From a virus (lineage: Duplodnaviria; Caudoviricetes): a DNA stretch of 64,000 bases. The stretch is from positions 977 to 64,976 of the IMG/VR virus record IMGVR_UViG_3300025316_000016. One strand, given 5' to 3'. Under the pieces are notes generated by a model. It saw nothing but the letters and a program-made list of their open reading frames with translations, was not told where the DNA came from and made no database searches. The position numbers and the translations under genes are program-made. Below, one piece after another: positions 21,495 to 41,737 of the stretch; within the stretch, counting starts at the first letter, position 1; each line of letters opens with the position of its first letter.

Positions 21495-24413
21495 TTATAT
21501 GTTTCCTTTTAAAATATCGATTTCTTTTGACAAATCTTTAATGGCTTCGATCAGTAATCCAACCATGTTGCCGTAATCTACTGAATATATACCGTCAGCA
21601 TTTTCAAACACCACTTCTGGTAATACCGCGAGTACTTCTTGTGCAATCACACCAGTATATAGCTTAGTTGAATCTTCCTTATCGTTTCTGGTAAAAGTAA
21701 CACCTCTAATAGATTTGACCTTCTCTAATGAGTTAGGTATAACATTAACATTCTCTTTTAATCTAGCATCAGAATATGCTGTGATGTTGCCTGATGCTAC
21801 GATAGTACCAGCAACGGCATTTGATACACCTACACCAAGAGCATTCATCTGAAAGCTATTAGCTGTGTTTGTTGCATTAGCAGTACCTGCTGTCGTGGCA
21901 GTACCTGCTGTCGTGGCAGTACCTGCTGCTGCTGCTGTACCAGAGCTTATAGCCGAAGATACTTGGGCAGCAGTCTGATAACCTGTGGGATTTGTACTAT
22001 TATAAGGAGTGAATCCTAATCCTGTAGTTACTTGCGAACTAGTTATAGTACCAGCATATGTACCGGTGATATTTGCTGCTGTACCAGAGCTGATAGCCGA
22101 AGATACTTGTGCAGCTGTTTGATAACCAGTTGGGTTGGTGCTATTATAAGGAGTGAATCCTAATCCTGTAGTTACTTGCGAACTAGTTATAGTACCAGCA
22201 TATGTACCACTAATATTTGCTGCTGTACCAGAGCTGATAGCCGAAGATACTTGGGCAGCAGTCTGATAACCTGTGGGATTTGTACTATTATAAGGAGTGA
22301 ATCCTAATCCTGTAGTTACTTGTGAACTAGTTATAGTACCAGCATATGTTCCGGTGATATTAGTTGCAGTACCAGAAATATTGTGTGTATATGTTGCTGC
22401 TGTGTTAGCAAGTGCTCCATACACAAACCCAGTAGTAGCAATCATTGTATTACTGGTAGTTAGTGCTGGTGTTACTGCTAATGGCACACCCGTCAATTGT
22501 GGTGATATTTTTGGTGCAGCAACAGAATACAAGCCATCAATGGCTAATTGTATAGTATTAGCTGTGCTTGATATTCCAGAGTTAATTGTATAACCAATGT
22601 TATTGGCATAATATGGATTGATTACATATCCATCAACCTCGATCATTACAGTATCATTAACGGCAGCACCAGTTAATAGTGTTACTGATGTGTTACTTGT
22701 TTCTGTATAGTCAGAAGGATATTGTCGCACACCATCAACATAAACTCTTAATTGACTAGAACCAATAAGGTAAGATGGTGCTGTGAATAGTGTTTGTCCA
22801 GCAGTAGCTGTATAGTTCAGTCTTGATGAGTTGATTGTTGTTCCTGGTACTGCACCACTGCCACCACCCGTGCCACCAGCTGCCCAATAATAACTTCCAA
22901 CACCACCAGTTGTCAACACATACCCAGCTGTTGTTCCTGCTGGTAGAATGTTAGTTAATGCACCACCAGCTGATTGTGCACCAGTACCACCATATGCTAA
23001 TGGTAAAGCGTTTACCAGTGATAATGCATTAAACGCTGGAGATGCAGTTGTTCTAATATCTTGTGCAGTATTGATAGTAATTGTATTACCAGAACCAACT
23101 GCTGTGACACCATTACCACTAGTTAGATTAACTATTCCTGCTGTTGGTGTAGCAGAACCGGTGGTGCCAACAAATGAGTTTGCCGAAGTATTTGCTCTTG
23201 CATATGCAGAAGTTGCATAAACGTTCAGTGTGCTTACATTAGAATTTAATGTGCTTATGCTATTATTTAATGCGATGGTTACTGATGAAGATGCTAATGT
23301 GTTAGATGTCATCAGTGGAGAATATACCCCAGAATTCACATCCAGAACATCCCAATATGTGTTTATTTCATTCCATCTTATTGATGCGTTTGCACCAGAA
23401 ATACCTCTACTAACATTAATATACGCAGGAGTTGCTGTTGTCACACTAGAGTTTAATGTGAACGTATTTGCGTTATATACAGTTGCCCCGTTAATAACAA
23501 AATTACCACCAACAGACAATTGTTGATTTGTTATTATATTACCAAAGTATGCGGTGGCTGAATTTGCATCAACTAGTGACGATACTATTATTTTTGGTGC
23601 TGTTACAACAGTATTGGCTTGTAGTGTATTAGTATAACTAGTACCAGTAACACTTGATGTTGCTGTGTTTGTGCTGGTGTTAGCTTGTAATATGTTTGTA
23701 AAGCTAGTACCAGTAACACTTGATGTTGCTGTGTTTGTGCTGGTGTTAGCTTGTAATACGTTGGTATAACTAGTACCAGTAACACTTGAGGTTGCAGTAT
23801 TTGTGCTAGTGTTAGCTTGCAACACGTTCGTGAAGCTGGTGCCTGAAACTGCTGATGTTACTGTATAGATGTTATCGTTTGCTCGTAGTGAATTAGTAAA
23901 TGTTGTATTCACTACAGATAAGTCATTATTTATTTGTGCATCGGAAAGTATCGATAGATTATTAGATGTTGTTCTAGCACCAACAACCACATTATTAGAA
24001 ACATTAAGAGCATCACCAGAAGCCAATACTGACACAGTTCCATAATGGATAGTATTATTAGCAACGATAAGACCATTACCTGGACCATTAGCCAATAGTA
24101 ATCCACCAATATTAGCAGTTCCGTATGTAACTAGACTTAGTCCGGTATTGGCAAGATATGTTTGGCCACCTGTCCATAGGTTATAGGTAACGTTTGCAGA
24201 ACCGGCAACTAATTGACCACCAACAGTAGCACCATATGCAACAGAAAGTCCGGTACCAACACCGTTTAGGATAAGTATTCCAGAATCTTTGGTGTATGGC
24301 AATCCAGATGCACCACCACCCAAATTATTAATTTCTTGTGCTAGTGCGTTTGTATTGACTACCCAATCACCAAACGTGTTGTTATATGTTAATTGACTTA
24401 CTGTATTTGCCAT
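21495..24413 (-). CDS. Long tail fibre protein with C-terminal S74 chaperone
   Basis: N/T/S/A-rich repeats; AYSDARLKENV...GVIAQEV...GLLIEAIK. Confidence 0.9.
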   Translation of the reverse strand: MANTVSQLTYNNTFGDWVVNTNALAQEINNLGGGASGLPYTKDSGILILNGVGTGLSVAYGATVGGQLVAGSANVTYNLWTGGQTYLANTGLSLVTYGTANIGGLLLANGPGNGLIVANNTIHYGTVSVLASGDALNVSNNVVVGARTTSNNLSILSDAQINNDLSVVNTTFTNSLRANDNIYTVTSAVSGTSFTNVLQANTSTNTATSSVTGTSYTNVLQANTSTNTATSSVTGTSFTNILQANTSTNTATSSVTGTSYTNTLQANTVVTAPKIIVSSLVDANSATAYFGNIITNQQLSVGGNFVINGATVYNANTFTLNSSVTTATPAYINVSRGISGANASIRWNEINTYWDVLDVNSGVYSPLMTSNTLASSSVTIALNNSISTLNSNVSTLNVYATSAYARANTSANSFVGTTGSATPTAGIVNLTSGNGVTAVGSGNTITINTAQDIRTTASPAFNALSLVNALPLAYGGTGAQSAGGALTNILPAGTTAGYVLTTGGVGSYYWAAGGTGGGSGAVPGTTINSSRLNYTATAGQTLFTAPSYLIGSSQLRVYVDGVRQYPSDYTETSNTSVTLLTGAAVNDTVMIEVDGYVINPYYANNIGYTINSGISSTANTIQLAIDGLYSVAAPKISPQLTGVPLAVTPALTTSNTMIATTGFVYGALANTAATYTHNISGTATNITGTYAGTITSSQVTTGLGFTPYNSTNPTGYQTAAQVSSAISSGTAANISGTYAGTITSSQVTTGLGFTPYNSTNPTGYQTAAQVSSAISSGTAANITGTYAGTITSSQVTTGLGFTPYNSTNPTGYQTAAQVSSAISSGTAAAAGTATTAGTATTAGTANATNTANSFQMNALGVGVSNAVAGTIVASGNITAYSDARLKENVNVIPNSLEKVKSIRGVTFTRNDKEDSTKLYTGVIAQEVLAVLPEVVFENADGIYSVDYGNMVGLLIEAIKDLSKEIDILKGNI
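21931..22361. repeat. Three near-identical 144-bp (48-aa) tandem repeats
   Basis: GTACCAGAGC at 21937, 22081 and 22225; unit NITGTYAGTITSSQVTTGLGFTPYNSTNPTGYQTAAQVSSAISSGTAA. Confidence 0.93.
23615..23850. repeat. 60-bp (20-aa) tandem repeats, three to four copies
   Basis: Unit LQANTSTNTATSSVTGTS(Y/F)TN(V/I). Confidence 0.9.
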
Positions 24414-24416
24414 TTC

Positions 24417-24635
24417 CTAGACCTTGTTGATTAGTGCGACCATTAACTGCTTTATTTCGGACATATCACTTCGTATAATGTCGATTTCGTCTTTTAATGT
24501 ATTTATCTCTTGTTTCTGTAGACTCAATAGCTTGACTTTATTATAGTATTCATTCTTATCATTGACGTCCGTGTTAATGATTGCCATTGAGTTTGTGTCT
24601 CGGACAAAGTTGGTTCCCGTAACTTTTACATACAT
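24417..24635 (-). CDS. Small conserved T4-like protein following VrlC-like gene
   Basis: KVTGTNFVRDTNSMAIINTD, then a coiled coil ending SDMSEIKQLM. Confidence 0.75.
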   Translation of the reverse strand: MYVKVTGTNFVRDTNSMAIINTDVNDKNEYYNKVKLLSLQKQEINTLKDEIDIIRSDMSEIKQLMVALINKV

Positions 24636-26812
24636 TAGGTGAGTGTACCTGGTGGAAGTGCTAATGCTCTGATGTCAGATATTAGTGGGACTACAGTATT
24701 ATCTGATGATGCCAACACTATTTTTATAGCAAATTGTATGAATGAATTATATGATTGTCCGTTGATGTTTGTATATGATATAGAATTATTTGCCATACCA
24801 TTTAGTCCAGGAGCACATTCAAATTCAATAAGATCTGATTTTGAAGAAGAATATGTGTTTGTAGTTCCTGTAATTTGTGTCATTAATTGCCAGCTACCAG
24901 AATCAAATGTGTTTGTATCATTTGAATTTAGTATTTTATAATACACATAAACACCTGTCCCTGATGGTTTATATGCAGTATAATAAACTCGTAGATCGCC
25001 AGAATCATTTCCTGGTGTCATTACTACCTTTTTGGTTAGATATTTGGAGTATGAATTACCACCAGACTGACCAGTTTCACCTGAAGCAATGACAACTGCT
25101 TGTGTGGTGTTTGCTCCATATATTGAAATTGCGGGACTAGTCAAATAACCAGATCCAGGTGATATCACATTAATGGTAGAAATCGCGCCATTGCTAGTTA
25201 AGTTTGCGGTTAATACTGCTCTATCAGTTCCAATATCTGGCATAGAAACATATACATTACATGTGCTATTGCTATAACCAATACCAGTATTTGCGATAGC
25301 AATTACGTTGTGAAGGATACCCATGTTATTGATCATGTACCTTATGTTAAATAACGATATCCCATCATCCGAAATTATTGGACTAACATTAGGATCTTTA
25401 GATTCTAGTGTAGCCGAAAGTGAGAACGAATTATTAGAAGTTGATATCAATAATCTTTCGCCTAATCCATCATCTAAGTCTATGTTTGTTGGTGTTGGGC
25501 ACCCAAACTTTCCTGGAATAATTGGGAAAGGCCCAATAGGAACATTTCCTGCTGCTAGTGTTGAATTGTATTGGTATCCAATTGAAGTTTGAGTTGGCGT
25601 GAAATCTGTTGTTGTTACATTATATGCATCTGATCTCATGTTCTGAGTAAAATTACCCATTGTATTATTAACAACAGATGCGTCTATTTTGTGTTGTATG
25701 TCGTTTATGCCAAGCTTTCTAGCAGGAAGACCTTGAACCACATTGAAATCGATCAATGGTGTTTTAGTAATATCGAAAACGCACTGAGTTATTACAAACA
25801 TCAAGTCCTTTGATTGTTCTGCTGTCCATGTTATAGCATTTTGAGATTCGAACAAAGATCCAACATAAGGTGCTGCACCAATTTTAGTTATACTAGCTGG
25901 TGGCGTTACTGATGGTAATGGCGATACCGTTGAAGGTATGGCGATAGAGTTTTGCTCGGCCATGTATACTGTATACAAAGGAGAGTTTGCTTTCAGTAAG
26001 AACGCATACAACACACCAGACTGTACATATACAGGAGCACTAAACATGAATTCTGTATATGTTGTTGAATCCAGATAATGTGGATTTGATGTGGGTTGAT
26101 TTATTTGATTTGCTTGTAATGTAACTGTAGAATAATCTAAAGTTGCCCCACTAGGAATTCCATTTAGTGTCGGTACAATAGAAAGAGTTACTGGAATCTG
26201 TCCCACTGGTTTTGTGCAGAAGAATATTTTTACCGATTTTAAGAATACGCCATTTGGATAATTCTCTGGATCGATGATAAATGATTGTGCTATTGGATCA
26301 TATGGTGAGTATGTTGTTATGGTACTCACCACTGTCTGTGGTGCTGACGCTACAGATGTAAATGTTGTTGAACTTGAATCGGTAGATGGTGAAAAGTTTG
26401 CTTGTGTAGACTGTGCAGACAAACCAGAAGCAGTAAATGTAGCTTCTGCATAGCATGTTGCTGTCTTTTGGTCTGTAGTCACAGTTCTATTATCTACTCG
26501 GAATACTCTTGAACCAGTCTGAAATATTGCTGGTGGCACGTTAAATATTCCGTGAAAATTACCAGCCTCATCAGTTGATAGACCTGGCAAACCAGCACCA
26601 GATTTAACTGCCTCTGCAAGAGTTGCAATATTTCCTATGATATTGTATGTTGATCCAACCATACCAAGAGTCGTATTATAACCAAGAGATACATTGACAG
26701 GAGCATCTAGATATGCAATTTTATTCACACCATCGTAATTACTTATGGTTGCAGTATAATCGGATATACTAGCTATAGTTTGTGTTTGTCCCGATGCATA
26801 ATTGTATGGCAT
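24635..26812 (-). CDS. VrlC-like large structural protein, C-terminal part
   Basis: DPIAQSF...GVFLKSVKIFF, GSLFESQNAITWT...DLMF, FAIKIVL...IRALAL. Confidence 0.85.
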   Translation of the reverse strand: MPYNYASGQTQTIASISDYTATISNYDGVNKIAYLDAPVNVSLGYNTTLGMVGSTYNIIGNIATLAEAVKSGAGLPGLSTDEAGNFHGIFNVPPAIFQTGSRVFRVDNRTVTTDQKTATCYAEATFTASGLSAQSTQANFSPSTDSSSTTFTSVASAPQTVVSTITTYSPYDPIAQSFIIDPENYPNGVFLKSVKIFFCTKPVGQIPVTLSIVPTLNGIPSGATLDYSTVTLQANQINQPTSNPHYLDSTTYTEFMFSAPVYVQSGVLYAFLLKANSPLYTVYMAEQNSIAIPSTVSPLPSVTPPASITKIGAAPYVGSLFESQNAITWTAEQSKDLMFVITQCVFDITKTPLIDFNVVQGLPARKLGINDIQHKIDASVVNNTMGNFTQNMRSDAYNVTTTDFTPTQTSIGYQYNSTLAAGNVPIGPFPIIPGKFGCPTPTNIDLDDGLGERLLISTSNNSFSLSATLESKDPNVSPIISDDGISLFNIRYMINNMGILHNVIAIANTGIGYSNSTCNVYVSMPDIGTDRAVLTANLTSNGAISTINVISPGSGYLTSPAISIYGANTTQAVVIASGETGQSGGNSYSKYLTKKVVMTPGNDSGDLRVYYTAYKPSGTGVYVYYKILNSNDTNTFDSGSWQLMTQITGTTNTYSSSKSDLIEFECAPGLNGMANNSISYTNINGQSYNSFIQFAIKIVLASSDNTVVPLISDIRALALPPGTLT

Positions 26813-26824
26813 ATATTATCCTGA

Positions 26825-29800
26825 TTATTTGTTTTCTTTTTGGAATAGTGTACTGATAGAATACAGTACCGAGAATAATACCCACATACCATAACCAACC
26901 AATATTCCTGGTTTCTTATTATTTATCAACAGATTTGCCACCTTACAAACAGGAAACCCAACAGCCATTATAAATTTACCTAGCTTGTTGTCCTTTTCTA
27001 TAGCACCCATTTTATAAGCCATATGTTCAGCCCAAGGGGTAGCTATTCTCTGAGTCCATCTAGTCACCATTTCTTGCTGGGTAGATTTTCTACGCTCATC
27101 GTCCTTTATCCAAAACATGATATCTGGACCACTACCATTCATCCAATCAACAACAATGGATGCCCAACGAATATATCCTTCATATACTTTAGGGTTATTC
27201 TCGAACACCATTTTACCAAATGCTGCATCGGCATCATATATTCTTTTGTCTAGCAAACCTAGTTCGAACAGTTTAGTACAGATAATGGTACCACCGCCAC
27301 CGCCACCACCGCCCCATGAAGCTACGGGTGGAGCTGGAGCAACATATGTTGCTGTATTTAGTGTGTACTGGTATACATATTTAGATGTTACGTTAATTTC
27401 AGCACCATTGTAATAACCATTAATAGATGAACTATTTTGGTCTAATGCGATTGCTCTAACACCAGTAAACCAAGCACCACCCAAAGGCATGACTAATTCT
27501 ACGGCACCAGCAATATTGTTGTTATTGTACGTAATCCCTGGTGGGTTTGTTGATGAGAATATCATATTACTACTTGGATCTTTTATTGTCAGAGCAAATC
27601 CGGCAGGACCACCGGTATTTGTTGCTGTCCAACTAATAGTATGGTCTCCTGCTGCCACATATATTACAGGGTATATTGGTGATGTGAATGATGAACCACT
27701 GTTATTGTTGATTATTTGCGTGCCATTTAAATATACTATAGCAGAATTATCAACAGCATTACCAAATGTATAATTACCAGCTACAGGGAAGTTTACTGTG
27801 AATGATGCTGAATATGTTGCTGATTGATTAAGGTCGCCCCAAACACCATATTGGTTTAAGAATGAACACCAGTCATTGGGGTCTTGTACTTGATAAATGC
27901 TACCAGTAGTTCCTGCACCATTTAACGTATATGTTCCACCAACAGCGGTAACTTGTCCACCGGTATGTATAGGAGAAACACCAACAGTAAGAGATCCACT
28001 AGCAGTAGTGCCGCTGTATGAACCACTGGCGTCATATTGGCCATTCTGTATTGACGTTGATGTTGAATATGTTGGAGAACCTAGTACAGTAGAAACATAC
28101 AACCTAACATTTGTAGTTCCTGGATAGTTATACACCCCTTCTACTCTAGCAATAGGTTTAAAATTTGGAGATACATATGTACCAACAATATCACCAGCAC
28201 TAAATTCTCCAGTACCAACAACATTAGCTAACTCAATTGTCTCGCAAGATGATATGTATCTATCAATATTAGTACCATCAAACCAAGTTGATATTGGTGT
28301 ATTGATAAGGAGACCACTAACATTTAATCCTATTTGTTGAGGTCTAATGTATGGTAGAATTGAAATATTAGTCAAGTATCCATTGTTCACATTTAGCGAT
28401 GTTGATGCTGGTATTGAATTGGATATGTTACTCAGCACACTTGAATATGTTGAAGTTGTTGTTGTTGTTGCGGTATACCCAACTTGGCCACCAAATATAC
28501 CGTTAAACGCGCCGTGATTAGTAACACTATTAGATGCTGTTGAAGTTGTTGAGCTTGTTGTGCCAGGAATAATTGCAAAATCTCCAGCATTTATCACGTT
28601 AACGCCATTAGTTTGTTGACTAACTTGCATTCCTGGATTTGCTGATAGTATTGCTGGGTTTTGTGTAGTGTCTACCCAGTTATCCATAGGAGGATACAGT
28701 TCTGCTGTTCCTTGATATATGGTAACTGCGAATGGATTTAAACTTACAGTACTTGACGCAAGTTGCTGAACTATAATGTTATTTGCAGTATATGGTAGCG
28801 TGTATATATTAGAATGAGTTCCCTTGATACTATTAATAGCAAATGTGTTGGTTCCTGTTACTGTACCAAGACTTGCTAATACGATAGGGTTTTGCAACTG
28901 AAAGTTATCAACAAGAGTTATTGGTGATAATTTCTGAGTTCTTATGTTGATGTTACTAGTAAAGTCCATATTTCCGGTATCAGCCGTTGAATATGACGAG
29001 AAATCATCAACCAGTATACCATTCTTAAATCTATTGAATCCATTAGCATCGGGTATTTGTAATGAATGTGCATTTTGTTCCAACACACTTAATGCAGTAT
29101 AATACTCCAGATTATTAACCCTTGATTGTAAATCTGTGATATCCGACTTTGCCCATCTGTTATGTGGAATAGTATTGATAGACAAATTTGAACGTGTTCC
29201 GGATGGATTTTCTCCAGGAATATATGCTGTATATGGTTCGAGTTCCAATTTAGCAAGAACTAATGCTCCTACTGGTTCCGATGGGAATATAGGATTTGTT
29301 GAAGGTGTTCCTTCAATTATTTGGAAACTCTTATCCTTGCTCAATATCAATATATCTTTTCTTGCTAAGTAATATGAATATGTGCTTTGGAATTGTGATA
29401 AATCTGTTGGTAACAGAACCCCACCATCAGATGCGGTAGATAGCGCATACTCAAATGTTCCATTGCTTTGTGCAGATGCTCTTACCGGTCTAAAATCTAA
29501 AGAGTCTGCCAAGCTATACACTTTACCACTTTTAGCAGTATATGATGGTATATTATTGTATTGTTCTGGATTTGATGAGATACCACCATTGGTAGATGTA
29601 TATGATAATACACTAAAATAACCATCACCAGCACCACCACCTGTATGGGCATATCTGTCAAACACAACTACTAGAATTCCTCTAGCTGTAGCGGCACCTG
29701 GCATCAAAGATATACTAGCGTGGTCATAAAATGAATCTCTTTGACCGTTGTCCAATAAGTATTGTGCAGTAACATCAAAAGCTTTCGATGTCAGCATGTC

Positions 29801-32182
29801 TAATGTTGGTAGTGTTGTTGGTGATCCAGTATCAATTATTTTTGATATTGATTTTATATCTGAAACATATAAAGAGATTTTAGCTGCGTGAGCACCAACC
29901 GCTGTGATTTGTACTTGTCCGTTTGTTAAATCTACATTTGAAGTAGCGACAACAGTATTTGAAGTGCTTAATGCAGCACTATTTCCTATGACTAGATTTT
30001 TCGCTTTCAATACACCGTTAGTACCATCGGCACTAGTAACATTTACAGTAGATATAATGTTTACCGTTTTACCAGCATATCCAGCAGCAGTTATTGTTAG
30101 CTGTGTATTATTTTGAGTTACTGAAACAACAGCTGTACCGACATCAATATTCAATATTTGGTTAGTTGATGTGTCGATAAGTGTATAGTATGGTTTTATG
30201 TTGCCAGATGTTAATGTGCCAGACCCAATGAACGTTAGTGGTGTTCCTGTAGGTATAGTAATTGGACCAAGTACACCCGCACCAGAAAACGTTTTATTTC
30301 TCCAATTCTTAGTTGAAGTATATGATGATCCAGAAATCCCTGATACATATGGATTACCTATAGTAAACAACATTTCAGGATTTTGTGTACTTTCTAAAAT
30401 AGCATTACCTGTTACAATACCCGAAGTCTTTCCGAATGCTGTATTGATATTTGAATTTGCTGTTAGTACATATGATCCACCACCGACTGTTTGAACAACA
30501 GATTCAGCATTGGTGGAGTTCATGAACAAAGTAAATATTGATGTTGAATCTGGAGTAATTGTAAATGGTGAATTAACAACTACAGTTTTCACACCACCAA
30601 TAACGGTATATGAGTTTACTGTGCGGATGTCACCACTAGAACCACCAACACCACTAGTCAATGACAATTGCATGTTGTAGTATGCATTATTGGCAGTTGA
30701 GAATAGTGAACTTGAATCGTTTATTATGAATGTTGTATTAGATGTTGCTGATGAAACGCTACCAACTAGATTATTTCTAGAAATGCCACCAGTCAAGTAT
30801 GCTTTATAAACATACTGCAATGGTGATGCACTACCAGCATCATATACATATTGTAGGTTTCTTATGTTAGTAGTTCCTATCAGTGTTGATGCATATGTAT
30901 TTGCAGATGAACTAACAATGCTTGCTGAAGGTACGCAATGAACATCAACTCTAGGTTGTGTTGTTGTGTCGAAGAAACCATTGATAGTATCAACATAGAA
31001 ATAGTTACCATATGATATTGATACATCATTTGTTTGTATTGTTGAAGTAGATCTAGATCTGTCTGATGTCAATATAAGATTAGATTGATTTTCTATTCTA
31101 TATCCATGAACATATGCAACCCCTTTGCCAATATTCAAATCGTATTTATCAGCATCACCCAAAGAATTTGGTGCTGGTGTAAACTTAAATTGGTTTACAA
31201 TATAGTCGCCATTCGTTTCAAAGTCTCTCTTTGAAAAGTAATCATCTATCGCAGAATACACGGTTTGGTCTGTTTGCTTAACTACAGAACCTTTTACTAT
31301 TCGAACTAATTCTATGAATTGGTCATCATCACCGGTGGTAAGTTGTCTGTTTTCTAGTGCCAATGATATCTTGTATCTATCAGCACCTGGTGCTTGGAAG
31401 TTAGATGCACCAATAGCGGGATCTAACAAAGATATGTCGGTGGAACTATTAACAATAGATTCAGTTATGTTTAAACCAACTCTCATTGATGGTATTGAAT
31501 CATACGCATCAAGAACAATCGTTTGTGGTAAAACATTAACGAAGTTACCTACATTATAACTAGTATTAACACCAGCTTTCTGAATATCAGTATAACCATT
31601 AATAACATAATACACACCAGCAGAGATAGATGCGACCGAAGATGTACCAACAGAAGTAGTGTATTTGGTTAACACACTATTAATAGTTGCTGGCGGAGAA
31701 CCTATAGTTGTGCCAATGACTTTACCACCAACATATACAGACATACCATCATAAAAGTGCTGACCAGATTGGTATGAAATTACTAATGTTGGTAATAGTC
31801 CAGTCACCTTTCCAGTAGTTGCATCGATGGAAGATGAACCATAGTTTTGATTAGCTACTAGTATCGTGGCAATTATAACACCAAACTCATCAGAAACTAA
31901 CTGACCAGCTAACCCATCAATATTGATGTTTGTTCCAGCATATGTACTATTTAAAATAACATAATTACAATTAAGATTAGTAGTTACTTTACCACCAGAT
32001 ATGGGCGTGTTTTGGGAATATATTGCAGAAGCAAATTGTGTAATTTGGTTTTGAATAATAGTCTGAGACTGTGTTAATTCCCTTGCTTGAACCGAATATC
32101 CTGGTTGGAAAAGGATTCGGTGGTAGTTATCAGATGGATTAAAGTCATCAAAATATGGATAGTTATTAAAGTTCAATGCCAT
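26825..32182 (-). CDS. VrlC-like (DUF4815-type) large structural protein, N-terminal part, ending in a poly-Gly/IICT module
   Basis: NNYPYFDDF...RILFQPG.SVQARELTQSQ, APGADRYKISL, NLEYYTALS.LE, NRFKNGILVDDF; PA14-like segment; G8-TIICT tail. Confidence 0.88.
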   Translation of the reverse strand: MALNFNNYPYFDDFNPSDNYHRILFQPGYSVQARELTQSQTIIQNQITQFASAIYSQNTPISGGKVTTNLNCNYVILNSTYAGTNINIDGLAGQLVSDEFGVIIATILVANQNYGSSSIDATTGKVTGLLPTLVISYQSGQHFYDGMSVYVGGKVIGTTIGSPPATINSVLTKYTTSVGTSSVASISAGVYYVINGYTDIQKAGVNTSYNVGNFVNVLPQTIVLDAYDSIPSMRVGLNITESIVNSSTDISLLDPAIGASNFQAPGADRYKISLALENRQLTTGDDDQFIELVRIVKGSVVKQTDQTVYSAIDDYFSKRDFETNGDYIVNQFKFTPAPNSLGDADKYDLNIGKGVAYVHGYRIENQSNLILTSDRSRSTSTIQTNDVSISYGNYFYVDTINGFFDTTTQPRVDVHCVPSASIVSSSANTYASTLIGTTNIRNLQYVYDAGSASPLQYVYKAYLTGGISRNNLVGSVSSATSNTTFIINDSSSLFSTANNAYYNMQLSLTSGVGGSSGDIRTVNSYTVIGGVKTVVVNSPFTITPDSTSIFTLFMNSTNAESVVQTVGGGSYVLTANSNINTAFGKTSGIVTGNAILESTQNPEMLFTIGNPYVSGISGSSYTSTKNWRNKTFSGAGVLGPITIPTGTPLTFIGSGTLTSGNIKPYYTLIDTSTNQILNIDVGTAVVSVTQNNTQLTITAAGYAGKTVNIISTVNVTSADGTNGVLKAKNLVIGNSAALSTSNTVVATSNVDLTNGQVQITAVGAHAAKISLYVSDIKSISKIIDTGSPTTLPTLDMLTSKAFDVTAQYLLDNGQRDSFYDHASISLMPGAATARGILVVVFDRYAHTGGGAGDGYFSVLSYTSTNGGISSNPEQYNNIPSYTAKSGKVYSLADSLDFRPVRASAQSNGTFEYALSTASDGGVLLPTDLSQFQSTYSYYLARKDILILSKDKSFQIIEGTPSTNPIFPSEPVGALVLAKLELEPYTAYIPGENPSGTRSNLSINTIPHNRWAKSDITDLQSRVNNLEYYTALSVLEQNAHSLQIPDANGFNRFKNGILVDDFSSYSTADTGNMDFTSNINIRTQKLSPITLVDNFQLQNPIVLASLGTVTGTNTFAINSIKGTHSNIYTLPYTANNIIVQQLASSTVSLNPFAVTIYQGTAELYPPMDNWVDTTQNPAILSANPGMQVSQQTNGVNVINAGDFAIIPGTTSSTTSTASNSVTNHGAFNGIFGGQVGYTATTTTTSTYSSVLSNISNSIPASTSLNVNNGYLTNISILPYIRPQQIGLNVSGLLINTPISTWFDGTNIDRYISSCETIELANVVGTGEFSAGDIVGTYVSPNFKPIARVEGVYNYPGTTNVRLYVSTVLGSPTYSTSTSIQNGQYDASGSYSGTTASGSLTVGVSPIHTGGQVTAVGGTYTLNGAGTTGSIYQVQDPNDWCSFLNQYGVWGDLNQSATYSASFTVNFPVAGNYTFGNAVDNSAIVYLNGTQIINNNSGSSFTSPIYPVIYVAAGDHTISWTATNTGGPAGFALTIKDPSSNMIFSSTNPPGITYNNNNIAGAVELVMPLGGAWFTGVRAIALDQNSSSINGYYNGAEINVTSKYVYQYTLNTATYVAPAPPVASWGGGGGGGGTIICTKLFELGLLDKRIYDADAAFGKMVFENNPKVYEGYIRWASIVVDWMNGSGPDIMFWIKDDERRKSTQQEMVTRWTQRIATPWAEHMAYKMGAIEKDNKLGKFIMAVGFPVCKVANLLINNKKPGILVGYGMWVLFSVLYSISTLFQKENK

Positions 32183-32258
32183 TATAGTTATACCTTTTTA
32201 AGTCTTTGTTGTCATCTACCCAATTAAAATTCCGAGAATAGACCGCTATGTTTTATAT

Positions 32259-32266
32259 TATTTATA
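32259..32266 (-). promoter_or_regulatory. T4-type late promoter TATAAATA
   Basis: Exact match between gp8 and the VrlC-like gene. Confidence 0.8.
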
Positions 32267-32276
32267 TCACCGAAAT

Positions 32277-33662
32277 TTAGAACGATAGCACAAATTTGAA
32301 CTGTTCAATTCCATCGTTGCTTCTTTGTATTCCTGGTCTATTCTCTATATATGATATATATCCAGACTGTGGTACGAAGTTTGTTGGGTTCGTGTTTAAT
32401 AGCGTCCTGACACAGCCAGAGGTTGTACCAAATACAGGAAGATTTTCTATTGGTGTTCCGGTTATATTTATGACACTGATTACGTTAGTTGATAACATAA
32501 AGTCTAGCATTGTGGCAGAGAAAGTTACTGCTCCACTAGTGTCTACTTGATATATTATTTCATCATTAAGATAAGTACCAGCACCTTGAGCTACAATTAG
32601 ATCGGTCGATATCTTGTATATTGATTGAGTACCTGTTGATAAAGATGTAGTTGATGTTGTGTCAACTGGATTTGTCAACAGTCCAACTTGTCTATATGCA
32701 ACATCTGTTGGTATAGTACCACCCTCACTCCCATTGAACGTACATGTGTACATTATGTAGCAGCATCCTAATTCCGCAATTGGATCATTGCCATGACCAC
32801 CAACAGGAGATATTGGTGCTATGATAGTTGCACTAGAACCGCCTGTACCAATCGTTGGTGATACAGAAACTGTTGCTGTCGTATAATTAGCCCCAGGATC
32901 GTTCATAATGACATCAGTTATAGCACCATTAGACAAGTTTACAAATGCTGACGCACCAGTTCCATCTCCTGTGATAGTAACTGTTGGTGGTGTTGTTGCT
33001 GAATATCCAGTACCACCAAACGTGACATTAATCACATCTATGCTACCATATCCAGGAGTTGTTAATAATGGGTCATTAAGATCAGATGAATTATTGCCAA
33101 TAGGAACAGGCATCCACGAAGAGTCCATGAAATTGATCTGTGCTCCAGTATCTATGCTATAGAGATATTTCCATTTATAGCCGTCAGCACTAGTGTAAAT
33201 GTTGTTTATTCCATACGCACCTGGTTGGAACATGGGTTCATTTATCGAATACCCACCATTGTTGTTCCACAAGCATTTGAATACCTGATTATAGCTATTG
33301 TTGACATAGAAGTTATATACATTATATCCATTAGCATCCTTGGCATTGATATTAACGGTATCTGAGTAGTAATCATATATAGTGTTTGCTGTCCAGTTAT
33401 TCCTTCTTATTACTGGACTCATATCAGATGAATCGATTCGTTTAGCCACAAACATATTCTTACACACACTCTTAAGGTATGCTGGAGAGTCTACTGGCAC
33501 TTCTGGTGCTAAATCATTAGCCCACGAATCTGTTCTTGATAGGAAGCAATATGTGGAAGTTATCACGTTAGTAGATCCTAGCACAACAGATACTGGTGCG
33601 TAGTATGCTTGATCTACTAGAGATACTTTTGCATAAGCCGTTAATATATTTTGATTAGCCAT
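32277..33662 (-). CDS. gp8: Baseplate wedge subunit
   Basis: VFKCLWNN, DGYKWKYLY, GGHGNDPIAELG, YRQVGLL.NP, YIENR..IQR...E.FK.VL.F. Confidence 0.92.
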   Translation of the reverse strand: MANQNILTAYAKVSLVDQAYYAPVSVVLGSTNVITSTYCFLSRTDSWANDLAPEVPVDSPAYLKSVCKNMFVAKRIDSSDMSPVIRRNNWTANTIYDYYSDTVNINAKDANGYNVYNFYVNNSYNQVFKCLWNNNGGYSINEPMFQPGAYGINNIYTSADGYKWKYLYSIDTGAQINFMDSSWMPVPIGNNSSDLNDPLLTTPGYGSIDVINVTFGGTGYSATTPPTVTITGDGTGASAFVNLSNGAITDVIMNDPGANYTTATVSVSPTIGTGGSSATIIAPISPVGGHGNDPIAELGCCYIMYTCTFNGSEGGTIPTDVAYRQVGLLTNPVDTTSTTSLSTGTQSIYKISTDLIVAQGAGTYLNDEIIYQVDTSGAVTFSATMLDFMLSTNVISVINITGTPIENLPVFGTTSGCVRTLLNTNPTNFVPQSGYISYIENRPGIQRSNDGIEQFKFVLSF

Positions 33663-39425: not shown

Positions 39426-40229
39426 TTATGCTGCGTTAGGTGCACCAGTATTACCGCCTTGGGCATCTGGGTGAGTATGGTTATCGAGACTTATTTTATT
39501 TGCTATCATGTCACCACCAGAAGTAACTGTAGTACCGACAGTGACAGCACTACCAACACTAGTATTTACCGCAACTGATGCATTTCTCCCAACAACTAAA
39601 TCTATATTAGCTACCACGTTTTGGTTAGCAACAACATTACTTTGAGTTAATATATTGCCAGTAGTTGATAGGTCGCCTATCTGATTTACCGGACCAATGA
39701 AGTTGAATGATGTTGCTTGTGCGGTGAATATTCCACCCACTTTCATAAGCATGTTTCCACCAACCTCCCACTCTACATCACCATCAACTTGTATCTTTGC
39801 ATCACCCTGAACATATATCTTAACATCGCCTTGTATAGTTTCTTGACTATCACCAAGTATGTAAATACTGTTATCCTGTACAACTACCTTAAAATTGTTG
39901 TTCATCACCTTTTCGGTCATAGAACCATCAGGACCAATTTCTTGAAAAGTTCCTGTCCTATGTGCTATATTTATTCGCTCACTTCCTGGGGTATCATCCA
40001 GTTCAAACACATGACCAGAAGGAGTTGTCTGTGCATTGTTGTATGGATACACAGCATCATATGGCGAGTCTGGTTGACTAAATGTGTTGTTCGGGTTAAT
40101 TACAGCATCTAACTCATTAGACTTTAGCTTGTAATTCTTCTTGTTCGTCACGATTTCTGTCAAAATAGCACCTTGTGCTAATGATGATTCGAACGCCATT
40201 TGTAAATCTTGTATTGTTGGGGTGCTCAT
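39426..40229 (-). CDS. gp5: Central spike, C-terminal part (beta-helix plus HxH apex)
   Basis: YPYN...SGHVFELDDTPGSERI...HRTGTF.EI.PDG; (V/I)xGD repeats; ends LDNHTHPDAQGGNTGAP. Confidence 0.85.
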   Translation of the reverse strand: MSTPTIQDLQMAFESSLAQGAILTEIVTNKKNYKLKSNELDAVINPNNTFSQPDSPYDAVYPYNNAQTTPSGHVFELDDTPGSERINIAHRTGTFQEIGPDGSMTEKVMNNNFKVVVQDNSIYILGDSQETIQGDVKIYVQGDAKIQVDGDVEWEVGGNMLMKVGGIFTAQATSFNFIGPVNQIGDLSTTGNILTQSNVVANQNVVANIDLVVGRNASVAVNTSVGSAVTVGTTVTSGGDMIANKISLDNHTHPDAQGGNTGAPNAA

Positions 40230-41737
40230 ATTACGTATCCTGATGGTAGTGTGCTAAGAGCTGCCTGTACTCTTGCTATATATGGTGCACGAAAAGTTTC
40301 CAATTCACTTATTATATTTGGATTGTTATATGCCTTAGCCATATTTTGTTCATCTAGTGGTGGATTTGTGTTCCAATTTTGTACGTAGAGTCTTAACCCA
40401 AGTGCTGACCTACTATCGACTGTACCACCCGAACTAAATATGTTCTCTGACCAAGATGAGTTGACACCCTTTACATACCCTTCTACTGCTATTGTGGTAG
40501 TAACAATAGCAGCTTTGAATATGGCAACAGTATTTTCCAGTGATTTTATCTGATTGCTAGGAGCATGTACAATATGTGTTTCTGCTGGTATTACATTAGG
40601 CACAGTAACGTTTGGTGGCATTGGTGCAGAACCAACCACGATATGTGCTTGATTATTAACAACTACTACTGGCTGTTTCACAGTAACCATTGCAGGTGAT
40701 ATGCCAGCTAACCCAGCAAGTATAGTACAACCAACATGACCACTAGAATCAGTTAGATCAGTTAACAATTTACTGGCAGCATCTTCTGCTATAGCCAATT
40801 CTTCCGCCGCAAATTTTTCAGCACTTGCTATCTGTTCATTAACTGCCGCAGATGCATCACTCAGCATAGAGTTGAAGCTATTAGAAGCTGATGATACCGC
40901 ACCAGATACTGCACTTGTTGCTGAACCTATAGCACCAGTAACTGCGCTTGTTGCTGTATCTATAGCACCAGTAACTGCGTTCTGCGCAGACTGTTCTAGA
41001 CCAATAAGATACGATTCAGTTTCACTCAATAAATCTGATGCTGATGTGAAGAATCCGGCAACTTCACCTAACATACTATTAGGATCAAGACCACATGGAC
41101 TACCTGCTGCTGGCACACCATCTTTACCGGTAGGTGGTGGGGTTGGTGCAGCACCAGCATTACCAGACACCAGTAATTGTGTGCCTAATGATTCTGCTCT
41201 AGGTCCATATATATCATTAAATTTACTATCAATCTTCTGTGTTACTGATAGTGGTTTATCTGTGGTAAGATTTAGTGCGTCAAGATTAGTAGACGGTTTC
41301 CCCGGCAACTGTGGTGTTGTCACATAAGGATTACTAGTAAATGTAGAACCAGAACCATCTATATTTTGTGTTGGTGTTGTTGTAGTAGCACCAGATGTTG
41401 AAGGGTCGGTAAATCCTTGTGTTGGGTTCTTATTAACGGTTGGTGATATGACACCAGGCAACACACCGAAGTACGCAGGAAATTGTCCAGACTTACCATC
41501 AAAGAAATAACCAGTAACCCAATCCCCCATTGATGGTACAGAGAATGACTTTGAGTTATTAATAGGTAACACTGCATGAGACCAAGGCAAATCCGCTGTG
41601 GGTATCAGATTCTTGTCATCGGTGTGCCACCCGAATATCCGTACTTGGCACCTACCTATCTTGACTGGGTCGTTGTTATTTTCAACAACACCAATCCACC
41701 ACACAAACCCATTCATCCCCAAAAACGTATTATCCAT
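40226..41737 (-). CDS. gp5: Central spike/hub, N-terminal OB-fold part with variable extension
   Basis: FVWWIGVVENNNDP.KIGRCQVRIFGWH...LPW...GDWVTGYFFDG; no lysozyme motif recognised. Confidence 0.85.
   Translation of the reverse strand: MDNTFLGMNGFVWWIGVVENNNDPVKIGRCQVRIFGWHTDDKNLIPTADLPWSHAVLPINNSKSFSVPSMGDWVTGYFFDGKSGQFPAYFGVLPGVISPTVNKNPTQGFTDPSTSGATTTTPTQNIDGSGSTFTSNPYVTTPQLPGKPSTNLDALNLTTDKPLSVTQKIDSKFNDIYGPRAESLGTQLLVSGNAGAAPTPPPTGKDGVPAAGSPCGLDPNSMLGEVAGFFTSASDLLSETESYLIGLEQSAQNAVTGAIDTATSAVTGAIGSATSAVSGAVSSASNSFNSMLSDASAAVNEQIASAEKFAAEELAIAEDAASKLLTDLTDSSGHVGCTILAGLAGISPAMVTVKQPVVVVNNQAHIVVGSAPMPPNVTVPNVIPAETHIVHAPSNQIKSLENTVAIFKAAIVTTTIAVEGYVKGVNSSWSENIFSSGGTVDSRSALGLRLYVQNWNTNPPLDEQNMAKAYNNPNIISELETFRAPYIARVQAALSTLPSGYVI

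Follow-up and report, generated by a model that had tools for sequence, protein, structure and literature searches.

We analysed a 64,000-nucleotide (nt) stretch of viral DNA, referred to here as the window (positions 977 to 64,976 of IMG/VR record IMGVR_UViG_3300025316_000016), with a focus on a gene divided into two open reading frames (ORFs A and B), the first of which ends in a helical module that we call IIC. The source record is a 64,976-nt entry rated 39% complete, and the window has a G+C content of ~37%. Analysis of ORFs and profiles identified the window as a fragment of a T4-type myovirus, with a baseplate block on the minus strand. This block holds a gp5 homologue encoded by two ORFs, gp6-like and gp8-like wedge genes, and ORFs A and B, together with the gene for a 72-amino-acid (aa) structural protein and a 972-aa tail-fibre gene. 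The features of the region, in window coordinates, are listed below.

24417..24635 (-), virion structural protein, 72 aa, phrog_473
24635..26812 (-), ORF B, 725 aa, C-terminal part of the split VrlC; matches phrog_358 and phiM9
26699..26770 (-), second part of the split small domain, SISDYTATISNYDGVNKIAYLDAP, ORF B aa 15-38; hidden Markov model (HMM) score of 8.1 bits, reached by 2/300 shuffles
26813..26827 (-), TAA stop of ORF A and 12-nt spacer, TCAGGATAATAT; the spacer carries a Shine-Dalgarno-like AGGA
26825..32182 (-), ORF A, 1785 aa, N-terminal part of the split VrlC/DUF4815, linker and IIC module; matches in Pfam and to phrog_358
26828..27289 (-), IIC module, ORF A aa 1632-1785, 154 aa, six predicted helices
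26843..26908 (-), C-terminal hydrophobic helix, tail-anchor-like, ORF A aa 1759-1780; Kyte-Doolittle value 1.5-1.6
27281-27283 (-), invariant Cys1634 of the IIC module, present in 135/135 complete family matches
27290..27313 (-), Gly8 joint with mixed GGC/GGT codons, ORF A aa 1624-1631
27314..27382 (-), conserved linker, KYVYQYTLNTATYVAPAPPVASW, ORF A aa 1601-1623
27383..27424 (-), first part of the split small domain, INGYYNGAEINVTS, ORF A aa 1587-1600; HMM match (positions 4-20) weak in the window and clearer in four relatives
28250..28375 (-), ORF A aa ~1270-1311, ILPYIRPQQIGLNVSGL..FDGTNI, aligned by blastp to the VrlC of phiM9 and S-CAM9; predicted contact with ORF B aa 75-110
30518..30703 (-), intact small ~59-aa 'AYYN..ITSG..R.I..Y' domain, ORF A aa 494-555; HMM score of 78 bits
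32277..33662 (-), gp8-like baseplate wedge gene upstream of ORF A; gp8-VrlC synteny with phiM9 and S-CAM9

The C-terminal region of ORF A reads SSSINGYYNGAEINVTSKYVYQYTLNTATYVAPAPPVASW-G8-TIICTKLFELG..., with INGYYNGAEINVTSKYVYQYTLNTATYVAPAPPVASW preceding the eight Gly residues, and hydrophobic stretches span aa 1735-1753 and aa 1759-1780. A spacer of 12 nt separates the TAA of ORF A from ORF B, and an AGGA is located 6 nt upstream of the ORF B ATG. The two ORFs share a reading frame, but a second in-frame TAA lies between them. A first-pass annotation, made by a model from the letters and translations of this DNA, had described the glycine run, the TIICT start of the module, the hydrophobic end of ORF A and the start of ORF B 12 nt further on, and all of these statements hold.

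That annotation also took the two ORFs for a split VrlC gene, and both profile searches and colinearity with an unsplit homologue support this view. In Pfam, ORF A matched DUF4815 (PF16075; 4.3e-54) and PA14 (2.4e-05). On the phrog_358 profile of 2056 positions, ORF A covered positions 5-1290 (4.4e-210) and ORF B positions 1321-1629 (1.4e-87). ORF B shares 24% identity with aa 1138-1734 of the VrlC of Sinorhizobium phage phiM9, which is a single ORF of 1737 aa. Residue 1311 of ORF A corresponds to aa 1131 of the phiM9 protein, and residue 74 of ORF B to aa 1138, and hence the stretches ending at ORF A aa ~1311 and starting at ORF B aa 74 are only ~6 aa apart in phiM9 VrlC. These alignment limits imply that ORF A aa 1312-1785 and ORF B aa 1-73 together represent an insertion relative to phiM9. 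The VrlC of Synechococcus phage S-CAM9 is also a single ORF (2508 aa), located between gp8 and a small ORF, and the order gp8 - VrlC - small ORF is common to the window, phiM9 and S-CAM9, with the small ORF at the position of the window's phrog_473 gene. Two reports describe VrlC as a baseplate component that replaces gp7 (PMC7029224, PMC4621102). Judged from these profiles and alignments, ORFs A and B encode one VrlC/DUF4815 baseplate protein as two polypeptides. They match this family of T4-like cyano-, pelagi- and rhizobiophages end to end and in the same gene order, but unlike the single ORFs of phiM9 and S-CAM9, the window gene comprises two ORFs and bears a foreign C-terminal module on the first.

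The split recurs in other phages. We found it, with differing junction sequences, in 10 fetched viral loci, and in a further set of 13 fetched loci related to ORF B, 12 of which hold upstream sequence, it was present in 10 of the 12. Recurrence with different junctions in separate loci indicates that the split is not an artefact. Across lineages, VrlC is cut at three sites on phrog_358 (after position ~944, at 1290|1321, and after 1424), and at each of these sites the upstream part carries an IIC module. Joining of A and B by trans-splicing or read-through was rejected, given the two in-frame TAA codons, the different frame and 11-nt overlap seen in other relatives, and the existence of a variant that is split yet has no module (L088/L089). 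A split intein was rejected as well, since an intein match was absent, the leaders of B proteins differ (MPYNYASGQTQ.. versus MTTLTYSS..) and a conserved His-Asn is absent. A megablast search of window positions 24000-33000 against GenBank phages matched nothing.

We then asked where in the protein the break lies. The first-pass annotation had placed it in the middle of a fold, of which it noticed an intact copy earlier in the protein, and this copy is indeed present at aa 494-555. We used intact copies of the small domain to build an HMM of 59 positions and scored it in the window and four relatives (L002, L004, L005 and L010); positions 2-20 matched the ends of the A proteins and positions 21-43 the starts of the B proteins. 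The scores of the B starts were reached by 0-2/300 shuffled sequences, and those of the A ends of the four relatives by 0-5/300. The A end of the window itself scored 0.5 bits, which is weak (reached by 52/300 shuffles), and its assignment therefore rests on alignment with the relatives. The complementary HMM halves indicate that the break falls within the small repeated domain.

A model of the complex between ORF A aa 1255-1623 and ORF B aa 1-140 obtained a score of 0.72, while the best of three controls scored 0.00. The mark applied to such models is reached by 58/80 solved complexes and 2/110 mismatched pairs, counts that apply only roughly here because the model used our own 7-row alignments. 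Contact agreement between runs was at least 89%, and the pLDDT (predicted local distance difference test) of the partners was at least 74. The contacts with the lowest error paired the A strand GYYNGAEINVT with B segments YTATISNY (aa 19-26) and TYNI (aa 55-58). In addition, A aa 1275-1317 paired with B aa 75-110, stretches that adjoin in phiM9. As modelled, A and B most likely re-form the cut fold, reassembling without a covalent bond.

To define the family of the IIC module, we searched its 154 aa with phmmer against 1.84 billion representatives. This gave 789 matches at E<=1e-3 (268 at 1e-10 and 64 at 1e-30), all of them representatives at 50% identity. The statistics that follow were drawn from the best 150 of the 789, of which 135 span the start of the module. 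The leading Cys, to which the first-pass annotation had drawn attention, is present in 135/135, and Lys is found at -3 from the Cys in 109/135. The module is C-terminal in 133/135, with 101-175 aa from the Cys to the protein end, and a CxxxC motif ('CKIIC' or 'CSIIC') occurs in 27/135. The expectation that the module always follows a Gly run turned out to be true of many members but not of all. At least four consecutive Gly lie within 20 aa upstream in 66/135 and another 17 are Gly-rich, but others are poly-Pro/Arg, Cys-Asn repeats, the His-Asn end of a Hint domain (n=5) or hydrophobic (n=3). The 108 long forms have a tail with a median Kyte-Doolittle value of 1.83, 3 Lys/Arg in the preceding 12 aa and a median of 8 aa after the helix. 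In the window the tail (aa 1759-1780, Kyte-Doolittle 1.6) is preceded by NNKKP and followed by QKENK, and thus has the sequence features of a tail anchor.

The AlphaFold2 (AF2) model of the module, based on a 45-row alignment, contains six helices and zero strands (pLDDT 89.5; predicted template modelling score, pTM, 0.82), with the Cys in the first turn of helix 1. Asp36, Tyr54 and Trp57 are conserved across IIC subtypes. The model and the profile scans agree with the earlier description, in which a separate helical module ends in a hydrophobic tail and shows no Hint motifs. Neither the module nor distant members matched a family in Pfam, PHROG or NCBIfam. With Hint profiles, ORF A and the module gave no match up to E 10, in a scan that does detect Hint in L094, P0020 and P0104. 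The Peptidase_S74 profile (PF13884) had no match in ORF A or the module, and Peptidase_S74 was not among the listed rows of the fold search. The CFI-box-CTERM model (NF041770) matched neither the window module nor P0012. Foldseek returned nothing from the PDB at E<=0.001 for IIC or for the CCVVAT module described below, BFVD matches were uncharacterised phage relatives only, and those in the ESM Atlas were unnamed viral clusters. Similarity to known toxins or pore-formers was not found for the IIC module in the family scans or in the PDB sequence and fold searches. The best PDB sequence match, a primase Fe-S domain (E ~1, using a profile of the window module and nine close relatives), was taken as chance.

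A tblastn search with two modules against 50,697 GenBank phage records found one record, that of Synechococcus phage SynMITS9220M01 (gene _028). Two peptide patterns run against 185,579 prokaryote species genomes, a narrow test, gave 54 pattern matches and zero relatives. In the literature we found nothing relevant on CFI-box or bacterial intein-like domains in phage tail fibers, on DUF4815, or on cyanophage glycine-rich, transmembrane or intein tail fibers, and SynMITS9220M01 is represented by a genome announcement only.

The module is under strong selective constraint. In a comparison of the window with L002, the proportions of nonsynonymous and synonymous differences in the module were 0.11 (pN) and 0.73 (pS), and the ratio of the corresponding rates (dN/dS) was 0.047, as against 0.205 for the A body and 0.153 for B; the values against L004 were 0.124, 0.219 and 0.157, respectively, with synonymous sites saturated throughout the module and its flanks in these comparisons. 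Purifying selection of this kind indicates that the module is functional coding sequence and has diverged together with its flanks. The protein cluster of the window holds 77 member sequences on 8 contigs. On the strength of these searches and comparisons, we describe IIC as a large, previously undescribed and unnamed family, predicted to be helical.

The joint is visible in nine split loci related to ORF B, and in these the linker 'ITS.YVY....ATYVPPPP..GGGG' is kept whatever module comes next. IIC of type 1 follows the linker in the window, L085 and L093, and IIC of type 2, 'IICNKLAQMGYFD', in L090, L095 and L097. A 'CCVVAT' module (~115 aa, with its own hydrophobic stretch) takes this place in L087, L092 and L096. 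L088 and L089 have no module and end in GGGGSGGWWSWSDWFDNQQGE, 14 aa past the Gly-rich run. On the ORF B tree, IIC type 1 requires at least two changes. At the end of VrlC part A in L094 stand Hint domains in tandem, at least three in number, followed by a Hint-like domain and a helical tail (Hom_end_hint 5.5e-12, PT-HINT 9.9e-11, Hint 1.5e-10); the point at which the VrlC body meets the first Hint lies outside the fetched sequence. The proposal that IIC swaps with Hint at the same joint is borne out in L094, but more often Hint is found between the carrier and the module, as in P0020, P0024, P0084, P0104 and P0185, of which P0185 carries CCVVAT. In L091 the gene is unsplit and a soluble insert of ~190 aa lies exactly at the split site. 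A further search found CCVVAT in 35 protein clusters, 30 of them on DUF4815 proteins, and a soluble 'RVICT' subtype of IIC is common on VrlC parts of 1767 aa (E ~1e-12 against the IIC HMM). The pattern among these close relatives identifies the poly-Gly joint, as far as sequence can tell, as an exchange point for unrelated Cys-led modules, Hint included.

IIC and CCVVAT showed no profile homology (hhalign probability 0.8%). The CCVVAT model (pLDDT 89.9) has six helices with the Cys-Cys just before helix 1, and its sequence gave a faint CFI_box_CTERM match (E 0.16, 11.8 bits versus a cut-off of 40). The two models share their top three VIA-align matches, the NEL domains of SlrP, SspH1 and IpaH, with Z values of 6.5/6.3/4.5 for IIC and 3.7/3.7/4.1 for CCVVAT, all of which lie below the stated noise level for helical folds. 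For IIC, the two highest values are those for 4puf_B (Z 6.5, root-mean-square deviation 4.0, 110 residues aligned) and 9h6w_A (Z 6.3, 3.4, 109 residues). These shared matches hint at a common fold despite the absence of detectable sequence homology.

Two of these loci showed further features. In L094 (L094:1-2973), each Hint has the form '...LVHNK|CFIAGT...', the Hint-like domain has no His-Asn, and the helical tail of ~95 aa is also present in P0192 and P0194. In the insert of L091 (L091:1-3150), DUF4214-like 'LGR.P...GL..W' motifs can be recognised by eye, with a second such motif farther upstream.

A census of 80 viral loci showed that the module is carried by several kinds of protein, namely VrlC fragments (13), glycine-rich proteins (25), ~130-aa Cys-Asn-repeat proteins (34), gp5 N-terminal parts (5), a Hint-containing protein (2) and one other protein; the motif search missed 10 of the 34 Cys-Asn-repeat loci, of which 5 were looked at individually. 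Among 120 proteins listed in a second search, DUF4815 was present in 18, Gly_rich_2 in 30 and a Hint family in 3, and their names were only 'hypothetical protein' or a DUF4815 label. Two carriers, P0009 and P0036, match the profile of gp5, the baseplate hub protein, over their first ~100 residues, and the beta-helix part of gp5 was not found within 8 kb of genes combining the gp5 N-terminal part with IIC. Each of 5 records of 104-236 kb holds one IIC gene, one of these records adding a P1 paralogue, so that IIC domains on different virion proteins are unlikely to dock with one another.

The glycine-rich carriers are followed in 25 loci by a gene that we call P1, mostly with an ATGA overlap, and a domain of the IIC family that lacks the tail is present in long P1 forms (E 1e-13 to 1e-18). 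The Cys-Asn carriers are followed in 22 loci by another gene, P2, which is unrelated to P1 (hhalign probability 0.1%). When all six frames of the window were searched with HMMs of P1 and P2, neither gene was detected (best E 0.31 and 0.7). A universal partner gene was therefore rejected, since the downstream families track carrier type and are absent from the window. P1 proteins (for example L014:8456-9298, and 24 further loci) have an N-terminal Cys/His cluster, C..C..HC, and in forms of 273-280 aa the IIC-family domain lies at aa ~152-270. SynMITS9220M01, the only cultured phage found with the module, carries it in gene _028 (L001:7672-9863 covers _028 and _029) behind a Pro34-Arg8-Gly-Ser joint, and the 113-aa product of the next gene, _029, shows the P1-family motifs 'DNC.IYN' and 'EYY.R' by eye. 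The Cys-Asn carriers (L013, L022, L028 and ~30 further loci) are ~300-aa proteins in which a body of ~130 aa is full of Cys-Asn repeats up to IIC, and one of them sits in a 235.8-kb record rated 100% complete. P0147 and P0150 are Rhs-like, with 'DPDGF'/'DPTGL' core ends, an internal IIC domain, several hydrophobic segments and a further domain after IIC; they appear cellular rather than viral.

What could such a module do on a baseplate protein? The explanation that we favour, though only tentatively, is that IIC is an exchangeable and probably removed C-terminal device for tethering or assembly. We start from what was observed, namely the anatomy of the locus, the family and its conservation, and module exchange at the joint, and from there we infer membrane insertion, removal and the identity of the cutter. 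The fission point would be a surface loop of the small beta domain that serves as an insertion hot spot in this lineage, and A and B would rejoin noncovalently by re-forming the split fold, together with a second fold whose parts adjoin in phiM9. At its new C-terminus, A would then offer a Pro-rich linker, the poly-Gly joint and the accessory, exchangeable IIC module, predicted to consist of a five-helix core in which helix 1 opens with the invariant Cys and Asp, Tyr and Trp are conserved, followed in most members, the window included, by the putative tail-anchor helix. Acting as a transient assembly or sorting device, the module may hold the baseplate fragment at the membrane, gather copies of it, or both, and would afterwards be cut off close to the poly-Gly joint to leave the mature protein; the cut could be made by the Cys of the module itself, by Hint in proteins that have it, or by a host or phage protease. 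A transient, removable device is favoured because the module-less variant ends just past the Gly-rich run, because Hint occurs at the same VrlC A end in L094 and elsewhere between carrier and module, and because most members end like tail anchors. N-terminal cleavage, which is established for Hint and bacterial intein-like (BIL) domains, would leave the carrier ending just before the first Cys of the Hint. The carrier would end in Gly where the Hint Cys follows a Gly run, as in P0020, and removal of the module is plausible. The sorting domains GlyGly-CTERM, PEP-CTERM and CFI-box-CTERM (NF041770), which combine a signature motif with a hydrophobic helix and basic residues, resemble IIC in having a Gly-rich or Cys-led motif and then a hydrophobic helix near the C-terminus. 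IIC differs in the folded core of 115 aa between motif and helix and in having no NCBIfam match, and its carriers are virion proteins made in the cytoplasm without a signal peptide.

Several observations weigh against this explanation. The loss of the module in L088/L089 marks it as an accessory that VrlC can dispense with. The membrane tether proposed in the first-pass annotation agrees with the tail-anchor-like end of most members, but ~24/135 modules (short forms) have no hydrophobic tail, and neither do the RVICT subtype and the copies fused to P1, so tethering is not the core function. In ~6 members a second hydrophobic stretch lies right before the module, which fits a simple cytoplasmic tail anchor poorly. 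A mere anchor would need no core of 115 aa under strong purifying selection. If IIC cleaved itself, Hint and IIC in one protein would be redundant, and since position 104 is His or Glu and the Pro-Trp is lost in the RVICT subtype, there is no invariant His or other obvious catalytic partner for the Cys. The complex of A and B is a prediction of a kind that halves of a single protein tend to pass, and the predictor may have been exposed to baseplate structures with distant VrlC homologues. Membrane-bound baseplate assembly has reportedly been seen, in electron microscopy of the 1960s. The available part of a review of the T4 tail does not mention it (PMC3004832).

The same facts can be read in other ways. 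It is unlikely, but deserves real weight, that IIC is a virion-borne payload. Retained in the virion, it would target the envelope of the host during infection, either by inserting into the membrane or as a Cys-dependent enzyme, and its carriers would deliver it much as VgrG, PAAR and Rhs proteins deliver type VI effectors, with the downstream gene as a chaperone or antidote. Such a role would suit the range of carriers (gp5 N-terminal hub parts such as P0009 and P0036, VrlC, fibre-like Gly_rich_2 proteins and the two Rhs-like proteins P0147 and P0150), the PT-HINT or other Hint domains upstream of the module, the single IIC gene per phage record and the hydrophobic nature of both final helices. 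It also recalls polymorphic cassettes, in which Rhs/PT-HINT toxins are paired with immunity proteins or fibre tips with chaperones, and which share with IIC loci a common trunk and a single joint with swapped C-terminal modules, a Hint in some cases and a tightly coupled downstream gene in many (P1 in 25 loci, with the tail-less IIC-like domain in its long forms, and P2 in 22). However, no toxin or immunity family was recognised and no known toxin or pore-former resembles the module, and in the window the ORF that follows encodes the remainder of the carrier, part B of VrlC. The window and the VrlC relatives have no P1 or P2 beside the module, and the window has none anywhere; P1 and P2 are mutually unrelated (0.1% by hhalign) and vary with carrier type. 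VrlC and fibres remain outside the cell, and some subtypes have no hydrophobic tail to insert. Also unlikely, if close behind in our estimation, is a module for oligomerisation, or an intramolecular chaperone, that registers the three chains of trimeric carriers (gp5, fibres, VrlC) and is later discarded; its Cys would lie on the symmetry axis and there bind a metal or form a disulfide. gp5 and fibres are trimeric, and the Peptidase_S74 chaperone domain, likewise a C-terminal and largely helical accessory of phage fibre proteins, is discarded after assembly. The phiM9 annotation records a Peptidase_S74-type chaperone domain in the neighbouring fibre gene. A strictly C-terminal position on protein classes known as trimeric would be expected of such a module, which could also be replaced by other helical modules or lost; the Hint that precedes it in some members, the CxxxC in 27/135 and the similar six-helix build of CCVVAT, with its Cys just before helix 1, are consistent with this role. 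Yet IIC has no S74 match, and it differs from Peptidase_S74 in its Cys, which stands in place of the Ser nucleophile, its long flexible joint and its hydrophobic tail. Joints such as Gly8 and Pro34-Arg8 would decouple the module from the fold that it should nucleate, and the module is used by only one carrier per phage.

We consider it doubtful that IIC, and perhaps CCVVAT, is a new all-helical processing domain with a Cys nucleophile that takes over the role of Hint at the poly-Gly joints of phage baseplate and fibre proteins, keeps the precursor at the membrane and then releases a Gly-terminated mature protein. Release might pass via a thioester to another nucleophile, giving a covalent link within the virion or to a host component. 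Still less probable, in our view, is a new all-helical Cys domain for autoprocessing or transfer, which is what the first-pass annotation proposed, taken in its strong form; the Cys would attack the joint and free a Gly-terminated carrier, perhaps as a thioester. The invariant Cys in the first turn of helix 1 and the conservation of Asp36, Tyr54 and Trp57 across subtypes point in this direction, as does a position equivalent to that of Hint and related pretoxin-HINT and intein-like domains (PF01079, PF07591, PF05203), which are also Cys-led, follow a Gly-rich joint and lie at the carrier C-terminus. Hint has a beta fold, whereas IIC is predicted to be all-helical, with no Hint motifs or Pfam match, and its Cys follows Lys-Ile-Ile, so that the preceding residue is Ile and not Gly; in addition, a conserved His is absent and Hint co-occurs with IIC. 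The NEL domains of IpaH, SspH and SlrP effectors, which are all-helical, work through a Cys and are the top VIA matches of IIC and CCVVAT, might offer a precedent, but their Z values (3.7-6.5) lie under the noise level for helical proteins and there is no sequence similarity. The module Cys is at the very start of the aligned range, and, judging by residue numbers, the NEL catalytic Cys presumably sits elsewhere. Finally, it is very improbable that the module is a selfish or neutral cassette, a passenger whose arrival split the gene and which does nothing for the phage, or else an artefact of assembly or annotation. Its presence at three different split points of VrlC and the exchange of modules at Gly-coding joints would be expected of such a passenger. 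Against this stand the strong purifying selection, synonymous sites as saturated as those of the flanks, the absence of a nuclease or recombinase domain, the persistence of the split in many independent contigs with different junction sequences, and the 77 member sequences on 8 contigs in the window's protein cluster.

The 789 clusters at 50% identity thus represent a large domain family that has no name in any library searched, and that is found on the machinery with which abundant, uncultured myoviruses of aquatic habitats contact their hosts. A baseplate protein, moreover, appears to tolerate fission inside a fold. Were the module removed or membrane-acting, as in the tethering or assembly device that we favour, this would represent a new principle of assembly, sorting or delivery for phage tails, with a possible use as a self-removing tag or membrane tether. 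With SynMITS9220M01 in culture, the question is accessible to bench experiments.

The gp5 homologue of the window (39426-41737, minus strand) likewise consists of two ORFs, which are joined by an ATGA overlap. A lysozyme match and an IIC module are both absent from these two ORFs. The first, of 503 aa, contains the OB-fold N-terminal part (phrog_430 positions 9-137) and ~370 aa of unassigned Ala/Ser-rich sequence, and the second, of 267 aa, contains the beta-helix part (phrog_430 positions 321-518).

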